Source: a virus
DNA: 10,391 nt
Reading direction: 5' to 3' (one strand)
Virus genome (UHGV): UHGV-0229635
Under the pieces are notes generated by a model. That model saw only the letters and a list, made by a program, of their open reading frames with translations. It was not told the DNA's origin and did no database searches. The translations under genes and the position numbers were made by a program. This document shows, one piece after another, positions 5,566-10,391 of the stretch; within the stretch, counting starts at the first letter, position 1, and each line of letters starts with the position of its first letter.

Positions 5566-5904
5566 TTAATTAACCAATGATGCTGCATATTCGATAAGGT
5601 AAAGCTTTGGGGCCAGCCAAATTTTTAACCAAGTCATATTGGTTACTGCACCAATAATAAAATCCCCCCACAGAGTCAAAACTCCAACCAATGGCACGAT
5701 AAGAAGATTAATATCACCTTTGCTATCCCAAACCATTGTCGGCCTGTATTTGGGATTTCCTTTCTCCCATGAATATCCTTCATCACCGATTTCACCTGTC
5801 TCAACTCTTTGGCACTGCTTCTTCATAAACCAGAAAACCAGTGGGATTGTTAGAATGGCTATTAATGTTTTAATCAGACTGTCAACCATATTCCATAGCA
5901 GCAA
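5566..5904 (-). CDS. small multi-pass membrane protein (about 107-112 aa); possible superinfection-exclusion-type protein
   Basis: ORF track; three hydrophobic segments (LIKTLIAILTIPLVFWF, INLLIVPLVGVLTLWGDFIIGAV, WLKIWLAPKLYLI). No good Shine-Dalgarno before either the TTG (5904) or the ATG (5889) start; the frame stays open upstream to 6018 without a canonical start codon. Confidence 0.45.
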   Translation of the reverse strand: MLLWNMVDSLIKTLIAILTIPLVFWFMKKQCQRVETGEIGDEGYSWEKGNPKYRPTMVWDSKGDINLLIVPLVGVLTLWGDFIIGAVTNMTWLKIWLAPKLYLIEYAASLVN

Positions 5905-6094
5905 CTGATGAACAACATCAGGAATCTGTGCCTGGCTAAATGAAACAGCCGCGTCTATTCCATTGCTGGCTTTTTGCAGTAGTTCTACGAGAATCTTGTT
6001 TGCTTGTTCTTCCGTATATCACCTTAAATAGTGGATTGCGGTAGTAAAGATTGTGCCTGTCTTTTAACCACATCGGGCTCGGTGGTTCCTCCAC

Positions 6095-6143
6095 TTTCCA
6101 CAGTCAAAGGAAATGGGTAGACTGTTGTTTCCACAGTCAAAAG
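6095..6143. repeat. two direct copies of TTTCCACAGTCAAA(G/A)G, 33 bp apart centre to centre
   Basis: Read directly: copies at 6095..6110 and 6128..6143; the second ends 12 nt before the ATG of the plus-strand small gene. Confidence 0.6.
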
Positions 6144-6155
6144 AAGGGCTTTGTT

Positions 6156-6320
6156 ATGACAGATATTGTTAATCCCAAAACCAACCCACACGAAGCCGCT
6201 CAACAGATTATTGTTGAGCTTATCAGAGCCGGTAATCTTGCCCCTGGCATTGACGGAAAGCCAAGCACAGTTGTTTATGAAAAAATTCTTGATGAGATTA
6301 TCAGAATAAACAGTAAGTAA
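6156..6320 (+). CDS. 54-aa hypothetical protein (MTDIVNPKTNPHEAAQQIIVELIRAGNLAPGIDGK...), transcribed antisense to the pL operon
   Basis: ATG at 6156 with a GAAGGG Shine-Dalgarno-like sequence upstream; the ORF-track extension to 6051 has no start signals; convergent with the minus-strand gene ending at 6321. Confidence 0.5.
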   Translation: MTDIVNPKTNPHEAAQQIIVELIRAGNLAPGIDGKPSTVVYEKILDEIIRINSK

Positions 6321-6615
6321 TTAAGAGAACAAAATTTCGAATGCCTGGCGGATGGTTGCAACATCTTCGTTCGTCAGTTTTTTTCGTTCATCTGATGACA
6401 TCGATAACAATGCATTCCTCTCAATCAACGTAGCCAGCAGTTTAGATGCTATATTTTGAACGTCAGGGCTTAACTCTAAGAATTTATTTCGACTACGTTC
6501 GAGAATAAGTTGTGTCGCGGGTGTATCTTTTAACTCAGATATTTTTTTTGTCCAATACATCAAGCATTTCTTTCGTTTTCTCAATTAGTAATTGTTCAAT
6601 ACATGAAATATCCAT
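6321..6615 (-). pseudogene. gene immediately downstream of N, interrupted by a +1 frameshift in an A8 homopolymer (plus-strand T8 at 6542..6549); the intact product would be about 97 aa
   Basis: A 26-codon ORF (6535..6615, MDISCIEQLLIEKTKEMLDVLDKKNI*) starts at an ATG with GAGG 5 nt upstream, two nt after the N stop. Removing one A from the run reads straight into the 6321..6584 frame (..DKKISELKDTPATQ..). The downstream frame alone has only a TTG or ATG start without a Shine-Dalgarno. Confidence 0.5.
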
Positions 6616-6617
6616 AA

Positions 6618-6926
6618 TTACCTCGCCGTCAGTTGTTTTGATTTCCGATAGCCTGCCACGTAGATGGCTACGTTTGGCAGGCAAATGCTTCCATTGCATT
6701 CGTCGGTATTTTGGTTACGAATGTTGCCGAGTGATATTGCTTTTTCAGAAAGGCTTAAACGCTTTCTCGGTTCTTTCTGAACAGGTTCATCACTGTCTGT
6801 ACCGAAGATCGAATCGATGATGTTGCATATAGCATCACGCTCGATAGCCAGCTTTCTGCGCCGCTCATGACGGCGAGTTTTGGCATTTCCTGTAAATGTT
6901 GATTTCCCGTACACGATTACCGTCAT
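6618..6926 (-). CDS. N: N-type transcription antitermination protein, P22 gene 24 type (102 aa)
   Basis: N-terminal arginine-rich motif GNAKTRRHERRRKLAIERD matches the P22 N boxB-binding peptide; GAGGA Shine-Dalgarno; long 5' leader carrying nutL. Confidence 0.85.
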   Translation of the reverse strand: MTVIVYGKSTFTGNAKTRRHERRRKLAIERDAICNIIDSIFGTDSDEPVQKEPRKRLSLSEKAISLGNIRNQNTDECNGSICLPNVAIYVAGYRKSKQLTAR

Positions 6927-7215: not shown

Positions 7216-7493
7216 GAACTATTGGTACGAATCGTTTATGATTTATTAACTCTACGAAATATGATTTTGATATATAAGGAAATTTATTTTTGTAAATGTT
7301 GCGGATGAAGGTTATGCGGCAGGGATCAGAATTGCGTGGTTTAGCAAGTTGTATCTATTTATTTTTCAATAAATACAATTGGTTATGTGTTTTTAGATGG
7401 TGGATCGGGAGGCAAAGAAAACTGCTAGGTAGAAAACTGTGGGCACAAAAAAGCTAATGTGGAGTTGTTTGATCTTTTTAGGGGAATAAGAAA

Positions 7494-7517
7494 ACCCGCC
7501 GAAGCGGGTGTTTTTGG
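7494..7517. terminator. bidirectional intrinsic terminator (stem ACCCGC/GCGGGT, loop CGAA, T-tracts on both sides)
   Basis: Read directly: aaaacccgccgaagcgggtgttttt; the stem starts 9 nt after the stop of the 40-aa gene. Confidence 0.65.
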
Positions 7518-7640
7518 TTATGCTGCCATTGGAAGCTTTGATGCTAGCATTTCTGCTTTTCTCTGCTTCATTTCAGCAATAATCTGATTGATTCGATCCG
7601 CACTTTTAAGCATATCTTTGATATGTTCAGTTCTAGACAT
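7518..7640 (-). CDS. 40-aa hypothetical peptide (MSRTEHIKDMLKSADRINQIIAEMKQRKAEMLASKLPMAA), second gene of the cI-proximal cassette
   Basis: ATG preceded by GGAGGA (spacer TAAAC); ends directly at the intrinsic terminator; below the ORF-track size cut-off; predicted helical and amphipathic. Confidence 0.45.
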   Translation of the reverse strand: MSRTEHIKDMLKSADRINQIIAEMKQRKAEMLASKLPMAA

Positions 7641-7663
7641 GTTTATCCTCCGCTCTGTAAGTG

Positions 7664-8026
7664 TCAAAGACCCGATTTAGCACTCTTGAGTAGTTTTGAT
7701 CCCTCAGAGCACAAATCAGGATTCTTTTCTCTTATGTTTTTGATTAAAATCTGTGCAAATATGATGATTTGCTTTAAGTTTAGTTCATTGATTGCATCAG
7801 CTTTTTGGTCAAGTTTCTCTAGCTCTGCATCTAATTCGTCAAGAGATGGGTTTGTTAACTCATGCAACCCTTCAATTCCAAGCTCTTCAAGACTGGTTGT
7901 AACAAATTCAATCAGACCGATTACAGCCTTTTTGACGCTATATATCTGCTTCTCCTCTGCGGAGGCCTCTGCACTTGGAACCAATGCTAAGGTTTTCAGA
8001 TATTCATTCGTTTCATCTTGGGTCAC
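7664..8026 (-). CDS. 120-aa acidic helical hypothetical protein, first gene of the cI-proximal cassette (position of lambda rexAB)
   Basis: ORF track; GTG start with AAGGAG 8 nt upstream; same strand as cI and 166 nt downstream of it; AT-rich relative to cI. Confidence 0.6.
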   Translation of the reverse strand: MTQDETNEYLKTLALVPSAEASAEEKQIYSVKKAVIGLIEFVTTSLEELGIEGLHELTNPSLDELDAELEKLDQKADAINELNLKQIIIFAQILIKNIREKNPDLCSEGSKLLKSAKSGL

Positions 8027-8192
8027 TAACTATACTCCTTATATATGCTCGATCAACCCATTTTGCAACCGCATTTACTGGGATAGAGCTTTTTTTACAA
8101 TAGTCTTATGTGTATATTTACAACGTTGTTTGTGGATAGGGTTATGATTTGTACCTAAAACCTGTCGCATTTTCGTCTCTATGCTATTGGTA

Positions 8193-8900
8193 TTAATAAT
8201 TTCTCAGCCACTCCCTTGCCTCGATGTCATCCAGATGGCGAGATTGCTTCAGAATACCAGCCACATACTCCACCTTTGCTACTTGATGATAAGGCAACGT
8301 TATTGGTCTGTGGTCCTGGTTGATGCTTGTAAATTGGTATTCTCCATCTCTGTCATAGCCAAGAATCTTGATCATGTTGTGTCCTTCGATGGTTCTGACA
8401 AACACCTCATCACCCGGGAATACTTTGGTGTTAGGCTCAATGAGTACATATTCTCCTGATTTTATTCTGGGCCACATGCTGTCTCCTTTCACACGAAGAC
8501 CAAAGGCATCTGGATCATCGCTATAAATCTTGAGCCACCCATCGCGTTCTTCGGTCATCTCGATGGCACCATCAACACCAAGAATTGCCTCACCAACCAC
8601 GCGCACTAACCCTTTTTTTAATTTGCCAACAAATGAAAGAGTATCTTCATCATTCGCTCCATTTAACGAAGTGCCGTGCTGAAGCCAAACAACATCAACG
8701 TTTAGAAATTTCGCAAGCGCATTCATTTTTTCCTGACGCGGTAAAGACTCAGCATTAAACCATTTGCTAACGCCTTTGGACGAAAGAGAAAGGGCACGGG
8801 CTATAGCCATTCCCCTACCATGTTCATCAAGACCAGCTTCTTTACAGGCTTGCGCTAGCCGCTGGGCGAATTCTTTGCGCACTTTTTCATTCTGAACCAT
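8193..8900 (-). CDS. cI: CI-type prophage repressor: N-terminal HTH domain plus C-terminal LexA-like S24 peptidase domain (235 aa)
   Basis: Divergent from cro across an operator region; S24 catalytic motifs GDSM (Ser141) and Lys178 with LexA-like spacing; no Shine-Dalgarno before the ATG, consistent with a leaderless pRM-type transcript. Confidence 0.85.
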   Translation of the reverse strand: MVQNEKVRKEFAQRLAQACKEAGLDEHGRGMAIARALSLSSKGVSKWFNAESLPRQEKMNALAKFLNVDVVWLQHGTSLNGANDEDTLSFVGKLKKGLVRVVGEAILGVDGAIEMTEERDGWLKIYSDDPDAFGLRVKGDSMWPRIKSGEYVLIEPNTKVFPGDEVFVRTIEGHNMIKILGYDRDGEYQFTSINQDHRPITLPYHQVAKVEYVAGILKQSRHLDDIEAREWLRNY

Positions 8901-8978
8901 GAGTACGATACTAAAGCACTTGCAAAAACTTTCAGTTCAATCATAATGCGTACTGAAAGTACGAAAAAGGATATTCCT
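8901..8978. promoter_or_regulatory. OR-type divergent control region (pRM/pR plus operators): candidate pR -35 TTGCAA (8920..8925) and -10 CATAAT (8942..8947); perfect palindrome CGTACTgaaAGTACG (8949..8963); 9-bp inverted repeat ACTTTCAGT/ACTGAAAGT (8928..8936 / 8952..8960)
   Basis: Read directly; position between divergent cI and cro. Confidence 0.7.
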
Positions 8979-9206
8979 ATGCAAAATCTTGATGAGCCGA
9001 TTAAAGGTGTCGGCATACCTGAAGTTGCGAAGGCTTGTGGAGTTAGCGAAAGGGCTGTCTATAAGTGGCTCAAAAACGGCTTCCTCCCTAAGACTGAGTT
9101 TTTTGGGAAAACGAAATACGCCTCAAAAATCGAAGAGATTTCTGGTGGCAAATATCAAGCAAGCGAAATGCTTGAAATAAGTAAAAAGAACCTTCTGGCT
9201 GCATAA
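8979..9206 (+). CDS. cro: Cro-like HTH regulator (75 aa)
   Basis: First gene rightward of the operator region; HTH signature (..VAKACGVSERAVYKWLKNG..); AAGGA Shine-Dalgarno 8 nt before the ATG at 8979. The in-frame ORF-track ATG at 8946 lies inside the candidate pR -10 and is unlikely to be used. Confidence 0.75.
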   Translation: MQNLDEPIKGVGIPEVAKACGVSERAVYKWLKNGFLPKTEFFGKTKYASKIEEISGGKYQASEMLEISKKNLLAA

Positions 9207-9213
9207 GTAACAC

Positions 9214-9248
9214 CGCTCTTTATCAATCTGCACCGCCGACAACGCGGT
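9214..9248 (+). promoter_or_regulatory. nutR: nutR: boxA CGCTCTTTA (9214..9222) and boxB hairpin ACCGCCGACAACGCGGT (9232..9248)
   Basis: boxA matches the consensus exactly; boxB matches the P22 nutR boxB as remembered; located between cro and cII as in lambda and P22. Confidence 0.75.
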
Positions 9249-9260
9249 AACTAATTAAGC

Positions 9261-9278
9261 ACTCATCGAAAGATGAGT
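9261..9278 (+). terminator. tR1-like hairpin (ACTCATC gaaa GATGAGT) followed by T-rich sequence
   Basis: Read directly; lies between nutR and cII where lambdoid phages carry tR1. The U-tract is imperfect, so it may be weak or rho-dependent. Confidence 0.35.
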
Positions 9279-9312
9279 ATTAGTGATTATTTACCTATGG
9301 AAATAGTAAGAA

Positions 9313-9609
9313 ATGGAAAGAACAAGTTACAGCAAACTATCACAGCGTGACGTTGATCGCGCAGAAACAGATTTACTTATCAATCTGTCAGCTATTACCC
9401 AGCGCGGTCTGGCAAAGATGATTGGCTGTCATGAATCGAAGATAAGCAGAACGGACTGGCGGTTTATTGCTTCGGTCCTGTGTGCTTTCGGAATGGCATC
9501 AGACATCAGTCCGATTAGCAGGGCTTTTAAGTATGCGCTTGATGAAATCATCAATAAAAAACGCCCGGCGGCAACCGAGCGTTCTGAACAAATCCAGATG
9601 GAATTCTGA
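9313..9609 (+). CDS. cII: CII transcriptional activator (98 aa); C-terminal 20 residues identical to lambda CII
   Basis: C-terminus ..NKKRPAATERSEQIQMEF is identical to lambda CII; the N-terminal two-thirds is divergent; located between nutR/tR1 and O. Confidence 0.85.
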   Translation: MERTSYSKLSQRDVDRAETDLLINLSAITQRGLAKMIGCHESKISRTDWRFIASVLCAFGMASDISPISRAFKYALDEIINKKRPAATERSEQIQMEF

Positions 9610-9641
9610 GATCATTACTGGATCAATCCACAGGAGTCATT

Positions 9642-10391
9642 ATGACAAATACAGCAAAAATACTCAACTTCTGCAGAGGTAACTTTGCCAAACAGGAGCG
9701 TAATGTGGCAGATCTCGATGATGGTTACGCCAGACTATCAAATATGCTGATTGAGGCTTATTCAGGCGCAGATCTGACCAAGCGACAGTTTAAAGTGCTG
9801 CTTGCCATTCTGCGTAAAACCTATGGGTGGAATAAACCAATGGACAGAATCACCGATTCTCAACTTAGCGAGATTACAAAGTTACCTGTCAAACGGTGCA
9901 ATGAAGCCAAGTTAGAACTCGTCAGAATGAATATTATCAAGCAGCAAGGCGGCATGTTTGGACCAAATAAAAACATCTCAGAATGGTGCATCCCTCAAAA
10001 CGAGGGAGGTTCCCCTAAAATGAGGGACATCCCTCAAAACGAGGGAAAATCCCCTAAAACGAGGGATAAAACATCCCTCAAATTAGGGGATTGCTATCCC
10101 TCAAAACAGGGGGACACAAAAGACACTATTACAAAAGAAAAAAGAAAAGATTATTCGTCCGAGAATTCTGGCGAATCCTCTGACCAGCCAGAAAACGATC
10201 TTTCTGTGGTTAAACCGGATGCTGCAATTCAGAGCGGCAGCAAGTGGGGAACAGCAGAAGACCTGACCGCCGCAGAGTGGATGTTTGACATGGTGAAGAC
10301 CATCGCACCATCAGCCAGAAAACCGAATTTTGCAGGGTGGGCTAACGATATCCGCCTGATGCGTGAACGTGACGGACGTAACCACCGCGAC
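9642..10391 (+). CDS. O: replication initiator O, lambda type; first 250 codons, continues past the window end
   Basis: Translation MTNTAKILNFCRGNFAKQERNVADLDDGYARLSNML... is near-identical to lambda O; the iteron origin lies inside the coding sequence; GGAG Shine-Dalgarno. Not in the ORF track because there is no stop in the window. Confidence 0.9.
   Translation, partial: MTNTAKILNFCRGNFAKQERNVADLDDGYARLSNMLIEAYSGADLTKRQFKVLLAILRKTYGWNKPMDRITDSQLSEITKLPVKRCNEAKLELVRMNIIKQQGGMFGPNKNISEWCIPQNEGGSPKMRDIPQNEGKSPKTRDKTSLKLGDCYPSKQGDTKDTITKEKRKDYSSENSGESSDQPENDLSVVKPDAAIQSGSKWGTAEDLTAAEWMFDMVKTIAPSARKPNFAGWANDIRLMRERDGRNHRD
9990..10160. other. iteron-type replication origin (ori-lambda type): six 17-19-bp iterons (9990..10113) followed by an A/T-rich region (10114..10160)
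   Basis: Read directly: TCCCTCAAAACGAGGGA, TCCCCTAAAATGAGGGA, TCCCTCAAAACGAGGGA, TCCCCTAAAACGAGGGA, TCCCTCAAATTAGGGGA, TCCCTCAAAACAGGGGGA, then acacaaaagacactattacaaaagaaaaaagaaaag. Confidence 0.85.

Follow-up and report, generated by a model that had tools for sequence, protein, structure and literature searches.

Paired repeats upstream of a small gene antisense to the pL operon belong to a control cassette related to the P22 sieB/sas region

Why should two near-identical direct repeats lie immediately upstream of a small gene that runs against the leftward early transcript of a lambda-like phage? The locus that raises this question is part of the virus genome UHGV-0229635, of which a stretch of 10,391 nucleotides (the window) was analyzed. 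A sequence-only reading of the window had taken the repeats for either a regulator binding site or an RNA structural element, had likened the gene to lysogen-active exclusion genes, and had suggested antisense interference with the leftward transcript from the convergent layout. Comparison with related sequences revealed that the repeats belong to a portable control cassette of many lambda-like prophages, which was first studied in P22 (Table 1). The lysogen-type gene antisense to pL and the antisense interference were upheld by this comparison, whereas the reading of the repeats as a regulator site was not. The sequence-only reading had made no mention of a −10 hexamer between the copies, of the covariation of the copies, or of a cassette that drives many cargo genes.

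Table 1 Features of the paired-repeat region and its neighbours in the window.
Feature	Position	Strand	Basis or remark
Anchor, 3' side of the sas-like RNA	6055–6087	−	both stems covary across genera
Anchor stem S1, GCCTG with CGGGC	6055–6059 with 6074–6078		
Anchor stem S2, AACCAC with GTGGTT	6066–6071 with 6082–6087		
Covariance-model match, homologue of the P22 sas RNA region	6059–6155	−	53.3 bits, E 3.6e-11 (rough)
Hairpin B, 5'-UUCCUUUG-A-CU-GUGGAA-AG-UGGAGGAA-3'	6112 down to 6086	−	RNAalifold, covariation
Repeat copy 1, TTTCCACAGTCAAAGGAA	6095–6112	+	sequence and repeat search
Weak −35 candidate, TTTCCA	6095–6100	+	17-bp spacer to TAGACT
−10-like hexamer, TAGACT, between the copies	6118–6123	+	sequence; TAnnnT conserved
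Repeat copy 2, TTTCCACAGTCAAAAGAA	6128–6145	+	sequence and repeat search
Shine–Dalgarno sequence of the 54-aa gene, GAAGGG	6143–6148	+	7 nt before the ATG at 6156
54-aa cargo gene (MTDIVNPKTNPHEAAQQIIVELIRAG...)	6156–6320	+	ORF, RefSeq, phage family match
Convergent 79-aa pL-operon gene	6321–6560	−	stop adjoins the stop of the 54-aa gene
N antiterminator gene	6618–6926	−	PF25694

The repeats and the small gene behind them

The two copies were identical at 17 of 18 positions with a start-to-start spacing of 33 bp, confirming the near-identical direct repeats of the sequence-only reading at a slightly greater length than it had given. A search for the 18-mer with up to three mismatches found only these two sites in the 10.4-kb window, where the number expected by chance was 0.07, and two matches occurred in none of 200 dinucleotide-preserving shuffles. 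On the plus strand, copy 1 covers the −35 position of a predicted rightward promoter; read as minus-strand RNA, it makes up the loop of hairpin B together with the 5' arm, and copy 2 provides the leftward RNA with a second copy of this arm-and-loop sequence. The purine-rich run AGGAA that follows copy 1 resembles the Shine–Dalgarno sequence that follows copy 2, so the repeated unit is a whole leader-like module.

The promoter with the TAGACT hexamer between the copies scored 8/12 against the consensus, and the promoter scan at a threshold of 9/12 returned no site; a poor −35 was common to all cassette types. Since copy 2 begins 4–8 nt after the −10 hexamer, at the expected distance of an mRNA start, transcription is predicted to begin at approximately 6128–6131, and copy 2 would then make up the first ~10–18 nt of the cargo mRNA. 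Three published sets of start-site data yielded no transcription start for the sieB gene of the K-12 Rac prophage. In the leftward direction, the scan predicted no promoter inside the 54-aa ORF, and a promoter using the TTGACT found in the reverse complement of each copy was rejected, as no variant had an acceptable −10 at a distance of 15–18 nt.

The 54-aa plus-strand ORF pointed out in the sequence-only reading proved to be a real gene: its Shine–Dalgarno sequence is in place, identical DNA in E. coli 214-4 is annotated in RefSeq (WP_164997364.1, hypothetical protein), and the profile search proposed for its product gave a match to the phage family phrog_27767 (E 1e-9). The profile searches returned no match to any Pfam, NCBIfam, or PADLOC model, and a defence-system identity of the cargo was dropped on the result with the PADLOC models. 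Relatives with a conserved N-terminus were found in Yersinia, Izhakiella, and a viral contig without known host, and had the same cassette type; the protein is otherwise rare, with three clusters in a large protein collection. Within the ORF, a 26-nt direct repeat (6202–6227 and 6280–6305, 81% identical) codes for QQIIVELIR and KILDEIIR, a pattern suggestive of a short helix that was duplicated within the protein.

Both the N gene and the 79-aa gene converge on the 54-aa ORF from the right, and to the left of the repeats the minus strand carries the membrane-protein gene that the sequence-only reading had placed there (phrog_3054), followed by further pL-operon genes. With N and the 79-aa gene on one side and these genes on the other, the 54-aa gene lies on the opposing plus strand, in the slot between N and the ral-side genes of the lambdoid pL operon. 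In lambda and P22 this slot is taken by sieB, which is the classic example of an exclusion gene that is expressed in the lysogen and transcribed against pL, and the proposed likeness to a lysogen-active exclusion gene antisense to pL was thus supported. The stop codons of the 54-aa and 79-aa genes abut at 6320/6321 with zero spacer, and no terminator-like site was predicted in the region 5850–6700, hence none between the two genes; rightward transcripts would accordingly be expected to read on, in antisense, through the 79-aa gene and into N.

Two further differences from related genomes were observed in the surroundings. On the minus strand at 6013–6015, the window has ACG at the position of the ATG of orf28 in lambda, and the leftward gene of E. 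coli 09-00049 has an ATG there with the Shine–Dalgarno sequence AAGGTGAT; with this replacement the phrog_3054 membrane protein is left without its usual start and would begin at TTG 5904 or ATG 5889, ~40 codons shorter. In E. coli 214-4, the nearest complete genome for the repeat region, the IS66-family element ISEc43 lies between N and the immunity region (positions 7475–9900 of that locus, L001, corresponding to approximately 7054 of the window) and is absent from the window. No complete E. coli genome carries 80% of the window as one piece, so the window represents a mosaic that is unrepresented in that collection.

A portable cassette with matched copies

Positions 6080–6147 of the window were present in 12 of 5426 complete E. 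coli genomes, six of which continued into the 54-aa gene and six into other DNA. In the alignment, the block 6052–6147 was kept and was followed at once by the Shine–Dalgarno sequence and ATG of unrelated plus-strand ORFs. A scan of viral contigs with an anchor pattern that did not include the repeats yielded 120 loci; apart from a few that lacked the cassette or contained a truncated one, these shared a single layout, consisting of the anchor, copy 1, a purine-rich run, TAnnnT, ~6 nt, copy 2, a Shine–Dalgarno sequence, and ATG. This architecture was seen in 73–82 unique cassettes, or ~80 variants. The TAnnnT hexamer was located 4–8 nt before copy 2, and 5–8 nt before the copy-2 core, in 72 of 73 unique cassettes, the first ATG followed the copy-2 core by 19–30 nt in all but four of the 73, and every cassette had a purine-rich Shine–Dalgarno sequence 6–9 nt before the ATG.

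At least 25 different cargo proteins were found behind the cassette: SieB of the P22 and lambda types, other membrane proteins, CxxC proteins, several families of ~165-aa coiled-coil plus zinc-ribbon proteins, YmfI-like 93-aa proteins, and several families of 50–85 aa. The cassette, which is ~100 bp long and bidirectional, would thus mark the place where the lambdoid prophages of many Enterobacterales plug in small lysogen-expressed genes; most of these genes are without known function, and some are probably anti-phage. As a combined signature of sequence and structure, it could be used to find such genes, including some that are unannotated.

Cargo was unevenly distributed over the cassette types described below. 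YmfI-like 93-aa proteins occurred only behind the TTCCACAGTCAA type, at 46% of those loci, and SieB was almost confined to the ACCCCTACAG type (44% of those loci vs 2% of window-type loci). An 84-aa plus-strand ORF (MSDVSLVKIIEDLN...) that RefSeq leaves unannotated lies behind the same cassette in E. coli F5505-C1 (L002, 3076–3330) and in a second locus (L004); its end overlaps an annotated minus-strand gene. In five loci (L018, L023, L047, L081, and L109) copy 2 is cut short, and a G+C-rich hairpin (CCCCCTTATTTTGTCAGGGGG) is present in its stead, with no cargo ORF.

The repeat itself differed between cassettes, but the two copies matched each other within a cassette, at a spacing that was always 33–35. 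Seven types of matched pairs were distinguished: ACCCCTACAG, TTCCACAGTCAA, TCCCCAACAAC, TCCCCAACGA, CCCCAATGCAA, CCCCAACATAA, and CCCCCACAA. The 12-mer of copy 1 agreed with the copy-2 position at 10.1 of 12 nucleotides in its own cassette vs 7.7 of 12 where the other cassette had another copy 1, a match reached in none of 10,000 permutations, a statistic that is inflated by sequence relatedness. Even so, seven distinct matched pairs would be hard to obtain by drift. One natural hybrid was encountered (L050), which combines a lambda-type copy 1 with a CCCCCACAA-type copy 2.

The sequence-only reading had counted an absence of the repeats from related genomes among the findings that would speak against it; both repeats are conserved there. 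The exact pair TTCCACAGTCAA N19–23 TTCCACAGTCAA was present in 25 species representatives across Enterobacterales, from genera that include Providencia, Proteus, Yersinia, Photorhabdus, Xenorhabdus, Serratia, and Rahnella as well as Pantoea, Erwinia, Mixta, Klebsiella, Enterobacter, Leclercia, and Trabulsiella. In these 25 species the anchor, spacer, and Shine–Dalgarno region had diverged; the scan demanded exact repeats, and their conservation in it is therefore partly by construction. In the anchor-based sample, which involved no selection for the repeats, both 12-mer cores were intact in 11 of 12 window-type cassettes, with variable spacer and flanks.

Two further candidates for recognition of the cassette did not extend over its types. 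Comparison with the motifs of the alternative sigma factors sigma-E, sigma-28, sigma-54, and sigma-S gave partial matches in one cassette type only, and these factors were rejected; CsrA-type GGA sites occurred in cassettes of the window and CCCCAAC types but were absent from the lambda type and so are not general.

Kinship to the sas region and structure of the leftward RNA

Sequence comparison and a covariance model identify the segment 6055–6155 as a homologue of the P22 sas RNA region and, in the opposite orientation, of the sieB promoter; the model was built from other repeat types only and had no window-type cassettes in it. The P22 sas RNA is listed with 127 nt on the minus strand in a 2026 small-RNA study (PMC13397905), and its published sequence corresponds, as reverse complement, to the lambda-type cassette in P22-like contigs; starting at the sieB start codon, it takes in both CUGUAGGGGU copies as well as the anchor. 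It is described as a cis-antisense RNA, which infecting P22 uses to switch off SieB synthesis (PMC12197685, PMC7067206), and the P22 sieB/esc/sas system goes back to Ranade and Poteete (1993), as cited in PMC12197685 and PMC3224144. The antisense interference suggested from the convergent layout agrees with this known RNA, whose sequence is the reverse complement of a homologous cassette. A discrete leftward RNA of about 105–127 nt is known for P22 only; for the phage of the window we infer one.

The window and lambda share a block up to GGTGGTTC (...ATATCACCTTAAATAGTGGATTGCGGTAGTAAAGATTGTGCCTGTCTTTTAACCACATCAGGCTCGGTGGTTC), which in lambda lies upstream of sieB, and diverge after it. Lambda has its own repeat at the same place, two copies of ACCCCTACAG that are spaced by 34 bp and enclose TAAACT. 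The window resembles the sieB loci of P22 and lambda in several respects: the cargo occupies the same pL-operon slot on the strand opposite pL, the anchor is homologous, the hairpin, −10 hexamer, leader, Shine–Dalgarno sequence, and ATG follow in the same order, and a paired repeat lies at the same two positions, with CUGUAGGGGU appearing twice in the published sas RNA. It differs in the repeat (ACCCCTACAG there, TTCCACAGTCAA in the window), in the hairpin loop (GGGG there, GUGGAA in the window), and in the cargo, which in the window is the 54-aa phrog_27767 protein unrelated to SieB. Because of this unrelated cargo, the window has neither a SieB/Esc pair nor the accompanying switch of translation between two in-frame starts; as its cargo is not a SieB with an internal Esc start, the window has the cassette and not the sieB system. 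The element of the window is a variant of the known, little-studied sieB promoter/sas cassette, in which the repeat sequence and the small cargo differ.

The sieB gene of the K-12 Rac prophage is preceded by a diverged cassette, ATACCCCTACAG ... TAACAT ... ATACCCTTACAG (L127, 3074–3171), and the covariance model detected this upstream region at 41.8 bits. The KilS sRNA of Rac (L127, 2906–3003) was considered as well and is a separate element, located further left of the sieB cassette.

RNAalifold on 31 variants in the sas orientation predicted two helices, hairpin B and the invariant AACCAC/GUGGUU. Paired cells amounted to 96.1%, compared with 83.6% in shuffles (none of 500 as high), and 58 cells, compared with 21 in shuffles, were changed on both sides, with double changes in six of the eight hairpin-B pairs; these covariation counts are inflated by relatedness among the sampled sequences. 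When the partners were slid by 1–3 columns as a control, pairing fell to 33–47%. The same hairpin picture was obtained by RNAalifold on 32 window-type variants. In lambda and P22, hairpin B has the form UCUCG-C-UGUA-GGGG-UACA-CGAGA; in the window its loop, GUGGAA, is the complement of 6096–6101. The hairpin-B cells comprised 197 Watson–Crick pairs and 32 G·U pairs when read on the minus strand, and only 4 G·U pairs if read on the plus strand, an excess that points to selection of hairpin B in the leftward RNA. For copy 1, which on the leftward strand furnishes the 5' arm and the loop of a hairpin whose stem has changed in a compensatory manner, the RNA structural element envisaged in the sequence-only reading was the right one of its two options.

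The anchor on the 3' side is predicted to adopt the topology of an H-type pseudoknot, in which S1 (GCCUG/CAGGC) and S2 are joined through an A-rich loop. Compensating variants were found in other genera for both stems: CCACG/CGUGG, CCAUG/CAUGG, and ACCCGC/GUGGGU for S2, and CCGGG/CCCGG and CUGGG/CCCAG for S1. The pseudoknot was scored sequence by sequence, as the pair register shifts between types in the MAFFT alignment, and this topology was scored in 81% of 26 variants vs 0.4% of shuffles. The window has G instead of A at 6075, resulting in one C·A mismatch in S1 on the minus strand.

The folding stability of the leftward RNA of the window was ordinary (z −0.6), and neither copy was distinctive in predicted accessibility; the evidence for the hairpin is comparative, drawn from covariation among related cassettes, and not thermodynamic. 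Many cassettes contained a stem of 5–11 bp between the −10/discriminator region and the region near the Shine–Dalgarno sequence, but a conserved hairpin around copy 2 was rejected, since the register of this stem varies, RNAalifold gave no consensus for it, and its G·U pairs, 36 vs 39 by strand, were without strand bias. An intrinsic terminator similar to tL1 was likewise discarded, as no U tract follows the hairpins and the terminator scan found none at them.

Rfam 15 gave no relevant match at or near a gathering score in the window, a P22-type locus, lambda, or K-12 Rac. As far as the literature was surveyed, it contains no description of the covarying repeats, of the hairpin with its strand specificity, or of the pseudoknot-like anchor; these repeats, hairpin B, and the anchor, absent from Rfam, would extend the single case of 1993, P22 sas, to a family with several specificity types.

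A proposed mechanism and its alternatives

We consider it likely, though far from certain, that transcription from pL silences the lysogen-expressed cargo gene by antisense pairing, and that the hairpin loop acts as a second site for the mRNA 5' end. The rightward promoter, with TAGACT and its poor −35, would in the lysogen start an mRNA at ~6128–6131 that consists of copy 2, the Shine–Dalgarno sequence, and the 54-aa gene. Upon prophage induction or phage infection, the same DNA would be transcribed leftward from pL into a sas-homologous RNA, in which the copy-2 complement would be followed by hairpin B, with the copy-1 complement as its 5' arm and loop, and by the pseudoknot-like 3' anchor. 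This RNA would pair with the leader and Shine–Dalgarno sequence of the cargo mRNA, and the gene would be off during lytic growth.

The hairpin would contribute to such pairing through the identity of the copies. Since copy 1 equals copy 2, the loop (GUGGAA; GGGG in lambda and P22) is complementary to what would be the first mRNA nucleotides (UUCCAC; CCCC), and the 5' arm beside the loop would be complementary to the next mRNA bases; hairpin B may thus offer the mRNA 5' end a second, loop-presented site. If two sites have to match, this would account for repeat types that stay frozen as stems and flanks drift. Against the need for a second site, a perfectly complementary cis site should already be enough for antisense pairing, neither copy stands out in predicted accessibility, copy 2 lies in no consensus hairpin, and the hybrid L050 exists with copies that differ. 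If the match between loop and mRNA 5' end is functional, the cassette would be a compact natural design by which a lysogen gene is turned off when the lytic promoter fires.

A further step, which we regard as rather unlikely, is that the leader types belong to a modular antisense switch of prophages across Enterobacterales and are specificity groups in the conflict between phage and prophage, such that the pL RNA of an infecting phage, with the anti-leader once in linear form and once in the loop of hairpin B, would silence a lysogen-expressed accessory or exclusion gene of a resident prophage of the same type in spite of a different cargo. The leader types would then act somewhat like the immunity groups of repressors, and the need for two simultaneous changes would account for types that stay frozen in distant hosts.

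It is quite unlikely that the repeats serve instead as two DNA operators for one phage or host protein, placed at −35 and +1 and activating or repressing the rightward promoter, with the different cassette types corresponding to different protein specificities. The geometry would suit such sites, as the direct repeats flank the −10 hexamer approximately three helical turns apart; the −35 is poor, as in activator-dependent promoters, and the 12-mers are very strongly conserved. Each window-type copy also agrees at 8/9 positions with the relaxed DnaA box, TTWTNCACA; however, this agreement is found in the window type only, the lambda-type and CCCCAAC-type repeats being unlike DnaA boxes. A search of 4 kb on either side revealed no repeat-type-specific protein cluster except the cargo, which varies within a type, and this result tells against the regulator binding site of the sequence-only reading. 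Moreover, a given type can be accompanied by different anchors, N genes, and repressors, and the flank of copy 1 evolves by compensatory changes with a G·U bias to one strand, which is a signature of RNA and not of DNA binding. The CII-type sequence TTGC N6 TTGC was absent at the repeats.

An intramolecular switch in the pL RNA, in which the copy-2 complement, being made first, would compete with the copy-1 complement for the 3' arm of hairpin B and the choice of fold would determine how the pL transcript is processed, how stable it is, or whether it terminates, appears very unlikely. It would account for a repeat unit that spans the whole 5' arm and loop of hairpin B and for the resemblance of the purine run AGGAA after copy 1 to the Shine–Dalgarno sequence after copy 2, two runs that change together in some genera (AAGGGA in L146, UAGGGA in L133 and L140). 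However, the flank of copy 2 is unable to pair with the 3' arm in several cassettes, such as L134 and L142, no terminator-like U tract follows either fold, and RNAalifold gives the local hairpin only.

That the match of the copies is functionless, the leader having once been duplicated and the copies then kept alike by linkage or by recombination between phages, is hardly probable: a hybrid with non-matching copies (L050) does survive in nature and relatedness of the sampled sequences does inflate the statistics, but matched pairs are seen for at least seven different repeat cores, both cores are intact in 11 of 12 window-type cassettes of the anchor-based sample while spacer and flanks vary, and independent drift would have separated the copies.

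The silencing by pL transcription that we favour has a functional analogue in IS10, in which the 5' end of RNA-IN pairs with the loop of RNA-OUT. As there, an antisense hairpin of the window would expose in its loop the complement of the very 5' end of its target mRNA, and pairing would cover the ribosome-binding region. The analogy is one of function only, without any sequence relation, and the loop site of the window differs in being a second, non-collinear copy, while the complement that is collinear with the mRNA is located 33 nt upstream of it in this antisense RNA.

Two comparisons can also be drawn within phage biology. Lambda OOP RNA, which acts against cII (PMC12197685), is likewise a short cis-antisense RNA of the lambdoid early region that lowers the expression of a convergent gene; unlike the putative antisense RNA of the window, which would cover the 5' leader and probably arises from pL read-through, OOP has its own promoter and intrinsic terminator and targets the 3' end of cII. 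Morons are independently transcribed accessory prophage genes that are set against the flow of a phage operon (PMC7067206). The 54-aa gene resembles them in its predicted lysogen-type promoter, in being a small accessory gene antisense to a lytic operon, and in the highly mosaic nature of the cargo. It departs from them in having no terminator of its own within 5850–6700, with the convergent gene beginning at the next base, and in a promoter region whose opposite strand specifies a conserved structured RNA, a property outside the definition of a moron.
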